From a virus (Duplodnaviria > Heunggongvirae > Uroviricota > Caudoviricetes), in the IMG/VR virus record IMGVR_UViG_2531839195_000011: 11,114 bases of DNA; one strand, given 5' to 3'. Within the stretch, counting starts at the first letter, position 1; each line of letters opens with the position of its first letter. Made by a program: the position numbers and the translations under genes. A model generated the notes under the pieces. The model worked only from the letters and a program-made list of their open reading frames with translations, was not told the origin of the DNA and did no database searches. This document shows, one piece after another, positions 2,206 through 3,784 of the stretch.

Positions 2206-2378
2206 TATGTCTAAATTACCAACAGGTGTCGAGATTCGAGGTAAATACATTCGCATCTGGTTCATGTTTCGAGGAAAACGATGTCGGGAAACATTGAAAG
2301 GCTGGGAGATTACTAACAGTAACATTAAAAAGGCCGGGAATTTAAGAGCGTTGATAGTTCATCAAATCAGTTCCGGTG
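2206..2378 (+). pseudogene. int: Tyrosine integrase, N-terminal fragment (57 codons), cut by IS1
   Basis: ATG 2206 gives MSKLPTGVEIRGKYIRIWFMFRGKRCRETLKGWEITNSNIKKAGNLRALIVHQISSG, running directly into the IS1 terminus at 2379. Integrase assignment rests mainly on the catalytic fragment on the far side of the IS1. Confidence 0.55.
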
Positions 2379-3144
2379 GGTAATGACTCCAACTTACTGA
2401 TAGTGTTTTATGTTCAGATAATGCCCGATGACCTTGTCATGCAGCTCCACCGATTTTGAGAACGACAGTGACTTCCGTACCAGCCTTGCCAGATGTTGTC
2501 TCAGATTCAGATTATGTCGCTCAATGCGCTGAGTGTAACGCTTGCTGATAACGTGCAGCTTTCCCTTCAGGCGTGATTCATACAGCGGCCAGCCATCCGT
2601 CATCCATACCACGACCTCAAAGGCCGACAGCAGGCTCAGAAGACGCTCCAGTGTGGCCAGAGTGCGTTCACCGAAGACGTGCGCCACAACCGTCCTCCGT
2701 ATCCTGTCATACGCGTAAAACAGCCAGCGCTGACGTGATTTAGCACCGACGTAGCCCCAATGTTCGTCCATTTCAGCGCAGACAATCACATCACTGCCCG
2801 GTTGTATGCGCGAGGTTACCGACTGCGGCCTGAGTTTTAAGTGACGTAAAACCGTGTTGAGGCCAACGCCCATAATGCGTGCACTGGCGCGACATCCGAC
2901 GCCATTCATGGCCATATCAATGATTTTCTGGTGCGTACCGGGCTGAGAGGCGGTGTAAGTGAACTGTAGTTGCCATGTTTTACGGCAATGAGAGCAGAGA
3001 TAGCGCTGATGTCCGGCAGTGCTTTTGCCGTTACGCACCACGCCTTCAGTAGCGGAGCAGGAAGGACATCTGATGGAAATGGAAGCCACGCAAGCACCTT
3101 AAAATCACCATCATACACTAAATCAGTAAGTTGGCAGCATTACC
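2379..3144 (-). mobile_element. IS1 variant (766 bp), inserted in the integrase gene
   Basis: Ends ggtaatgactccaacttactgat (2379-) and atcagtaagttggcagcattacc (-3144) are the IS1 inverted repeats. Flanking 9-mers (gttccggtg / tgacccgtt) differ, so there is no target-site duplication. Protein differs from canonical IS1 at many positions. Confidence 0.9.
2394..3089 (-). CDS. insAB: IS1 transposase as a single in-frame InsA-InsB' fusion ORF (231 aa)
   Basis: One uninterrupted [43 protein letters not shown]...[17 protein letters not shown]...[13 protein letters not shown]. The frameshift window reads CACTTAAAACTCAGG (T4 on + strand at 2835-2838) where canonical IS1 has A6, so the insA frame continues into insB' without a stop. 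Confidence 0.85.
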
Positions 3145-3784
3145 TGACCCGTTATCTAAAACAGAATTCAATGCATTAATGGAAAGTGAAAAAGGACAGA
3201 GCCAAAACTTGTGGAAATTTGCCGTTTACTCCGGGCTTCGTCACGGGGAACTGGCAGCTCTGGCGTGGGAGGATGTGGATTTCGAGAAGGGAATTGTGAA
3301 TGTCAGAAGAAACCTGACGATACTTGATATGTTCGGTCCCCCAAAAACAAATGCCGGGATCCGGACGGTAGCATTACTGCAGCCGGCTCTTGAAGCACTG
3401 AAGGAGCAATACAAACTGACCGGGCATCATCGCAAAAGCGAAATCACTTTTTATCATCGGGAGTACGGCAGAACTGAAAAACAAAAACTGCATTTTGTTT
3501 TCATGCCCAGGGTGTGTAACGAAAAACAGAAACCTTATTACTCGGTAAGCAGTTTGGGTACAAGATGGAATGCAGCAGTAAAACGTGCTGGTATTCGCCG
3601 CCGTAATCCGTACCATACGCGACATACTTTTGCCTGCTGGCTGTTGACGGCAGGAGCGAACCCGGCATTTATAGCCAGCCAGATGGGGCATGAAACTGCG
3701 CAAATGGTGTATGAAATTTACGGTATGTGGATTGATGACATGAACGACGAACAGATAGCCATGTTGAATGCGCGGTTATCGTAG
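3145..3784 (+). pseudogene. int: Tyrosine integrase, C-terminal catalytic-domain fragment (~213 codons)
   Basis: Reads ...FAVYSGLRHGELAALAWEDVDFEKGIVNV...NPYHTRHTFACWLLTAGANPAFIASQMGHETAQMVYEIYGMW..., with the R...H-x-x-R...H...Y catalytic pattern of lambda-family integrases. It begins immediately after the IS1 terminus; the central core-binding region appears to be missing. Confidence 0.8.

Follow-up and report, generated by a model that had tools for sequence, protein, structure and literature searches.

Organization of the recombination module

Within the window, by which we mean the whole 11,114-nucleotide stretch of DNA analysed here, lies the recombination module of the Shigella flexneri "sit island", a degraded Rac-like prophage that carries sitABCD as cargo. 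The integrase gene, intR, is present as two fragments on either side of a copy of IS1, with a truncated excisionase gene and an IS3-family element upstream and a phage attachment site downstream. The features on which the argument depends are the following:

727-2032, plus strand: IS629/IS1203-like element of the IS3 family, with 25-nt terminal inverted repeats at 727-751 and 2008-2032; matching records annotate an IS3-family/IS1203 transposase
2038-2205, plus strand: remnant of xisR (excisionase), without the first 43 bp of the gene
2207-2378, plus strand: 5' fragment of intR, nucleotides 1-172 (57 codons plus 1 nt); 171 of 172 nt identical to intR of E. coli CFSAN029787
2379-3144, transposase on the minus strand: IS1, 766 bp, with 23-nt terminal inverted repeats GGTAATGACTCCAACTTACTGAT and ATCAGTAAGTTGGCAGCATTACC (87% complementary)
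3145-3784, plus strand: 3' fragment of intR, nucleotides 597-1236 including the stop codon; 637 of 640 nt identical to intR of CFSAN029787
3785-4010, plus strand: unrecombined Rac-type attP, with a mimic of the ttcA 5' end, a core at 3858-3885 and TTTGCCCC repeats on both arms
4239-7664, plus strand: sitABCD, an iron/manganese ABC transporter, from its open reading frames and from the sitA-D genes annotated in matching E. coli records

The integrase gene is a pseudogene lacking its central part

Two intact alleles served as comparators for the interrupted gene: the 1,236-bp intR of E. coli O121 (L001) and a closer allele, encoding 411 aa, from E. coli CFSAN029787. Nucleotide identity between the fragments and intact E. 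coli intR alleles is 97-99.7%. The 5' fragment opens with an ATG at 2207, one base to the right of the feature start given in the original prediction (2206), and encodes MSKLPTGVEIRGKY...ISSG, part of the arm-type DNA-binding domain (Pfam Arm-DNA-bind_2, E = 3.9e-20). The 3' fragment consists of 1 nt, 212 codons and a stop, and represents the C-terminal part of a tyrosine recombinase. The 57 N-terminal codons counted from the sequence alone are therefore right but for a single additional nucleotide, while the "about 213" C-terminal codons come to 212.

Alignment to the intact alleles sizes the segment missing between the fragments at exactly 424 bp, corresponding to nucleotides 173-596 of the gene, or codons 58-199. 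There are zero filler bases at the junctions, and IS1 touches int sequence on both sides. We also looked for the arrangement expected of a simple insertion, in which the two fragments would be contiguous save for IS1 and a 9-bp repeat, and the intact homologues show otherwise. The two fragments are the ends of one gene, since both match a single allele, that of CFSAN029787, at approximately 99.5%. A mosaic origin, raised by the unequal identity of the two pieces to the O121 allele (93% on the left, 98.6% on the right), is ruled out by the same match.

In intact IntR, Pfam places an arm domain at residues 5-69, a SAM-like core-binding domain at residues 82-139 (a weak match) and the catalytic domain at residues 205-391. 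The fragments in the window retain residues 5-57 of the arm domain together with the entire catalytic domain, the latter being complete in the 212-aa C-terminal piece (Phage_integrase, PF00589; E = 3.5e-24, 85.9 bits). What has been lost is the entire core-binding domain, along with the linker and the last part of the arm domain, in agreement with the earlier reading that the core-binding region was missing. The intact intR protein could be aligned with Tn1549 Int (PDB 6emy) across the catalytic domain, where the catalytic residues were picked by eye only.

The three domains of IntR are nowhere joined in a single reading frame in the window and, since 424 is not divisible by three, the remaining pieces are out of frame with one another. 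With the core-binding domain gone and the pieces out of frame, the integrase cannot work, and the proposal that the island has been left without a working integrase is upheld. The split intR is a pseudogene of the Rac-type tyrosine integrase family, which has no working member here. It follows that the int open reading frames of 58 aa and 217 aa, the second of which starts inside IS1, are pseudogene fragments and should not be called genes.

The IS1 copy in intR has no target-site duplication

Members of the IS1 family are approximately 768 bp long and end in imperfect terminal inverted repeats of about 23 bp that start GGTAATG/GGTGATG, with a transposase that is produced from insA and insB' through a -1 frameshift at an A6C motif. 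A target-site duplication of 8-9 bp is the mark of a simple IS1 insertion and not of membership of the family. The element in the window has both the length and the inverted repeats of the family; its identity to other IS1 copies of S. flexneri and E. coli O121 is 99.5-99.9% and, a 2-bp gap aside, it is the same as the 768-bp IS1 that occupies this site in S. flexneri genomes. No duplication of 8-10 bp flanks it, the adjoining 9-mers being GTTCCGGTG on one side and TGACCCGTT on the other. With these dissimilar flanks and the 424 bp missing from the gene, the original description of an integrase split by IS1, with its central region lost and no duplication, is borne out. As controls, an IS1 in the first codons of intR in E. 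coli VTB97448v is bordered by a perfect 9-bp duplication, TAGAGGTAG, and an IS1 at another S. flexneri locus (L016, strain Shi06HN006) by one of 8 bp.

The 2-bp gap falls in the frameshift signal. On the minus strand, an open reading frame at 2394-3089 fuses insA and insB' in frame into a product of 231 aa, which has the domains Zn_ribbon_InsA, HTH_Tnp_IS1 and DDE_Tnp_IS1. The slippery A6C motif has contracted to A4C (T4 at 2835-2838 on the plus strand), making the element 766 instead of 768 bp long, while A6C is intact in the orthologous IS1 of every S. flexneri reference. The contraction is probably a sequencing error, because the other indels specific to the window are also homopolymer contractions. 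One of these, A7 to A6 at 4227-4232, shifts the upstream sitA start at 4216 out of the reading frame, so that the open reading frame starts at 4239; another, G6 to G5 near 9615, gives a tail-fibre open reading frame of 390 aa against 422. All three contractions (2835-2838, 4227-4232 and around 9615) are probably sequencing errors.

A single further IS1 of 766 bp was found, in S. flexneri Shi06HN006 (L016:9946-10711), where it is flanked by an 8-bp duplication. It is unlikely that the A4C contraction is real; if it were, this copy of IS1 would encode an in-frame InsAB' that needs no frameshift and would be naturally deregulated, and the second 766-bp copy could mean that a contracted IS1 variant is mobile. 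In either case the contracted element cannot have caused the int deletion, as all the other S. flexneri genomes have the same deletion with a canonical A6C IS1.

The deletion allele is shared by seven chromosome-scale assemblies

Both int/IS1 junctions are base-for-base identical in seven chromosome-scale assemblies, which were reached by exact-protein look-ups of both fragment open reading frames, the one route by which Shigella chromosomes were accessible. One of the seven, CP001383, is S. flexneri 2002017, and CP004057, which holds the L016 locus, is S. flexneri Shi06HN006 (PMC5429569). In addition, a short contig lying between IS629 and IS1, and so carrying the left junction, occurs in at least 20 samples. 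Among 5,426 complete E. coli genomes, none has either int/IS1 junction as a contiguous match.

These occurrences bear on whether the structure might be an assembly artefact, with reads misjoined through the IS1 repeat. The window does contain three homopolymer contractions that resemble sequencing errors, and its left end joins sequences that belong to two loci of the reference genomes. Both junctions nevertheless recur without a base of difference in numerous draft contigs as well as in the seven chromosome-scale assemblies, each assembled independently, and we consider a misjoin scarcely credible. The int::IS1 deletion allele is real and is common to all seven assemblies that are readable across it, and the more general statement, that this is a genuine IS1-associated deletion allele, is close to certain. 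It is an ordinary IS-made pseudogene, already present in long-published S. flexneri genomes, calls for no unexpected mechanism, and adds one more case to the IS-driven decay of genes in Shigella.

A second IS-associated lesion in the module, and the left flank

The excisionase gene is also incomplete. The remnant of xisR aligns with O121 from L001:18272, the intact gene starting at 18229, and its match to the Pfam family DUF1233 (putative excisionase) covers no more than positions 18-67 of the 70 in the profile. In the S. flexneri references, the flanks of IS629 correspond to L001:17921 and 18272 of O121, so that 350 bp are missing, with no duplication; the lost DNA comprises rcbA/DUF1187 and the 5' end of xisR. 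With this deletion at IS629, the recombination module carries two lesions that combine an IS with a deletion.

Further to the left, the window begins with the 3' end of an IS2 (to 396), followed by a 329-bp fragment of a Dit-like phage gene (397-725) that abuts IS629. The S. flexneri references have this IS2-Dit'-IS629 arrangement elsewhere in the chromosome, in the vicinity of yceI and of a gene for an acyltransferase (Pfam Lip_A_acyltrans). Either the source strain has undergone a rearrangement between IS629 copies or the assembly is chimeric at IS629. Directly oriented IS2 copies (1-396, and from 10768 to 11114) bound a block of 10.4 kb holding IS629, xis', int::IS1, attP, sitABCD and tail-fibre genes, in a layout like that of a composite transposon.

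An unrecombined attP precedes sitABCD

Downstream of the 3' int fragment, the left arm of attP corresponds to the intR-ttcA junction of O121 and its right arm to the uspF-sitA junction of the same strain, with the two overlapping in the core AAGAAAGAACAATACAAYCTGAACAA (3858-3885). A 50-bp phage-borne mimic of the 5' end of ttcA precedes the core, and the arm beyond the core leads into sitA. The region accordingly presents int, the ttcA 5' mimic, the core and the other phage arm, as a Rac-like attP does, and the record of phage Rac-SA53 has intR, ttcA and attP annotated over window positions 3145-3885. The window has four copies of TTTGCCCC, where chance would give 0.5; those at 3793, 3804 and 3990 are candidate arm-type Int-binding sites. 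As the attP that follows int is intact and unrecombined, this copy of int has no attL/attR pair of its own here.

The immobility of the island does not stem from the loss of int, as xisR has also been cut by IS629 and the attP is unrecombined. The sit island cannot excise by means of its own Int and Xis, and any loss or movement of sitABCD must use IS-mediated or homologous recombination. In S. flexneri 2002017, a second IS1 lies in the same orientation approximately 8.5 kb downstream, and the two copies (L009:9247-10014 and L009:18472-19239) bracket sitABCD. Such direct repeats are an obvious substrate for the RecA-dependent deletions that reportedly occur in the sit island.

The junction between attP and sitABCD is not confined to Shigella: an unrecombined attP lies beside sitABCD in pAPEC-O2-ColV and in a few E. 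coli chromosomes. In the plasmid (L032, NC_007675:90901-91159) the last 43 bp of int, attP and sitA are 100% identical to window positions 3742-4000. A plasmid origin for the window was considered and rejected, given that ColV-type plasmids have only IS629, IS1 and the attP-sit segment in common with it, and not the int fragments. The chromosome of E. coli H22 presents the order uspF, a sitD fragment, a 231-bp int remnant, attP and sitABCD; this arrangement suggests the remains of a tandem lysogen, which would be one way of arriving at the order int-attP-sit. This wider distribution of attP-sitABCD hints, if only modestly, that a Rac-like phage in circular or tandem form was the source from which the sit module spread.

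Discussion

Origin of the int deletion

Both of the routes put forward in the original prediction, an adjacent deletion promoted by IS1 and recombination between two IS1 copies, are standard ways of accounting for such an allele, and both fit the observed structure. We propose that IS1 first inserted in intR and that a transposase-driven deletion beside the resident element then removed the central part of the gene, a reading to which we give a probability of roughly 55%. In this model, an ordinary IS1 insertion would have taken place at one of the two present junctions. The resident IS1 would then have undergone intramolecular replicative transposition to a second position in intR, at a distance of 424 bp, so that the interval was deleted as a circle and a single IS1 was kept without a target-site duplication. 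The end product would be a fixed pseudogene, with a 57-codon arm-binding stub, no core-binding domain and a catalytic domain out of frame. Here the anatomy, the size of the deletion, the absent duplication and the shared junctions are observed, and it is the order of events and the involvement of transposase that we infer. The structure has the hallmarks of an IS-mediated adjacent deletion, with the IS at the junction, colinear flanks, no filler and no duplication.

The precursor that this model supposes, with IS1 at one junction, a 9-bp duplication and the rest of int intact, is absent from the 5,426 complete E. coli genomes. Written out, the two hypothetical simple-insertion junctions are IS1 directly followed by GTTCCGGTG-AATTTGAG, and AAAGCC-TGACCCGTT directly followed by IS1; neither had an exact-pattern match in collections of metagenomes and species-representative genomes, which barely sample Shigella. 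Likewise, no strain with two IS1 copies in int was found in the same genomes and collections.

The last of these searches concerns the other proposed route, in which two IS1 copies inserted in the same orientation (intR nucleotides 172/173 and 596/597) and RecA-dependent recombination between them then removed one IS1 and the 424 bp. We regard this as possible, if somewhat doubtful. It would yield exactly the product observed, in which the two surviving flanks would be halves of two different duplications. IS1 favours AT-rich targets, and the segment lost from intR has the highest AT content of any part of the gene (38% GC against 43% overall). In E. coli, IS1 hits in or beside xisR-intR are recurrent, at four further positions, and S. 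flexneri is very rich in IS1, with around 100 copies per genome, so that two hits in one gene are not far-fetched. The second same-orientation IS1 8.5 kb downstream in the reference genomes and the RecA-dependent deletions said to affect the sit island point in the same direction. Against this, the route needs three events, including two same-orientation hits within 424 bp, and neither a double- nor a single-insertion genome was found among those searched.

A further suggestion accompanying the original prediction was that an IS1 copy carrying the reciprocal flanks might be found elsewhere in the genome. Within 20 kb, the second, downstream IS1 of the S. flexneri references is flanked by GCTTTTTTT and CGCGTTAAG, which are unrelated to the int flanks. 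The search is in any case moot, because the flanks are colinear in one gene, 424 bp apart, and the reciprocal product would be a small circle that has been lost.

It is also conceivable that the arrival of IS1 and the deletion were a single event, with the IS1 ends attacking sites 424 bp apart or the element being captured at a break, as has been proposed for some IS5 and IS481 events. De novo IS arrivals with a deletion and without a duplication are on record (PMC11708052). An IS centred in the deletion, with no filler and no duplication, would fit such an origin. A single event is not known for IS1, however; the cases from long-term evolution all resolved to two-step adjacent deletions (PMC11708052), and nothing in the sequence calls for a one-step route, which we think quite improbable.

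Two considerations favour the adjacent deletion over recombination between two IS1 copies: it requires two events where the latter requires three, and it has a precedent in the Lenski populations. There, each IS-plus-deletion event without a duplication could be explained by a prior insertion and a subsequent adjacent deletion (PMC11708052). The reading we prefer is thus an insertion of IS1 followed by a deletion beside it.

Comparison with known systems

Classical examples of IS1 adjacent deletions are those next to gal. IS-promoted adjacent deletions, including those of IS150 in the Lenski experiment (PMC11708052), resemble the structure in the window in that the IS stays in place, the DNA beside one of its ends is lost, and there is neither a target-site duplication nor filler bases. 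The window differs from them in that the assignment is made by parsimony, no precursor having been found in the genomes and collections searched, and in the small size of its deletion, 424 bp confined to a single gene.

With the Rac prophage module (Liu et al. 2015, PMC4632033; phage Rac-SA53, KU052037), the window shares the order xisR-intR, the mimic of the ttcA 5' end and the core. It departs from that module in having an int that is split, with 424 bp lost, an xisR truncated at its 5' end, and an attP rather than a prophage-chromosome junction after int. The ttcA gene of S. flexneri carries no Rac-like prophage (Liu et al. 2015, PMC4632033), and our reading of the site as an attP agrees with this.

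Parallels for the lesion itself come from other Rac-type regions in E. coli. In strains MLI023K1, ET846, LR-50 and O121, an IS1 of the same orientation lies in or next to intR or xisR or, in O121, inside the prophage, and has no duplication. As in the window, prophage DNA has been lost on one side and truncated genes border IS1. Unlike the deletion in the window, those in the four strains run for kilobases into the prophage, and intR is intact in ET846 and LR-50. Neither of the S. flexneri int/IS1 junctions is present in any of the four, the positions of the junctions being different. IS1 without a duplication beside lost Rac DNA is accordingly a recurrent pattern in E. coli.

Finally, the setting of the lesion is that of the Shigella sit island, in which sitABCD is reported to lie among phage-derived genes and many insertion sequences, in a region said to be unstable through recombination. 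The window presents the same picture, with sitABCD amid phage genes and insertion sequences.
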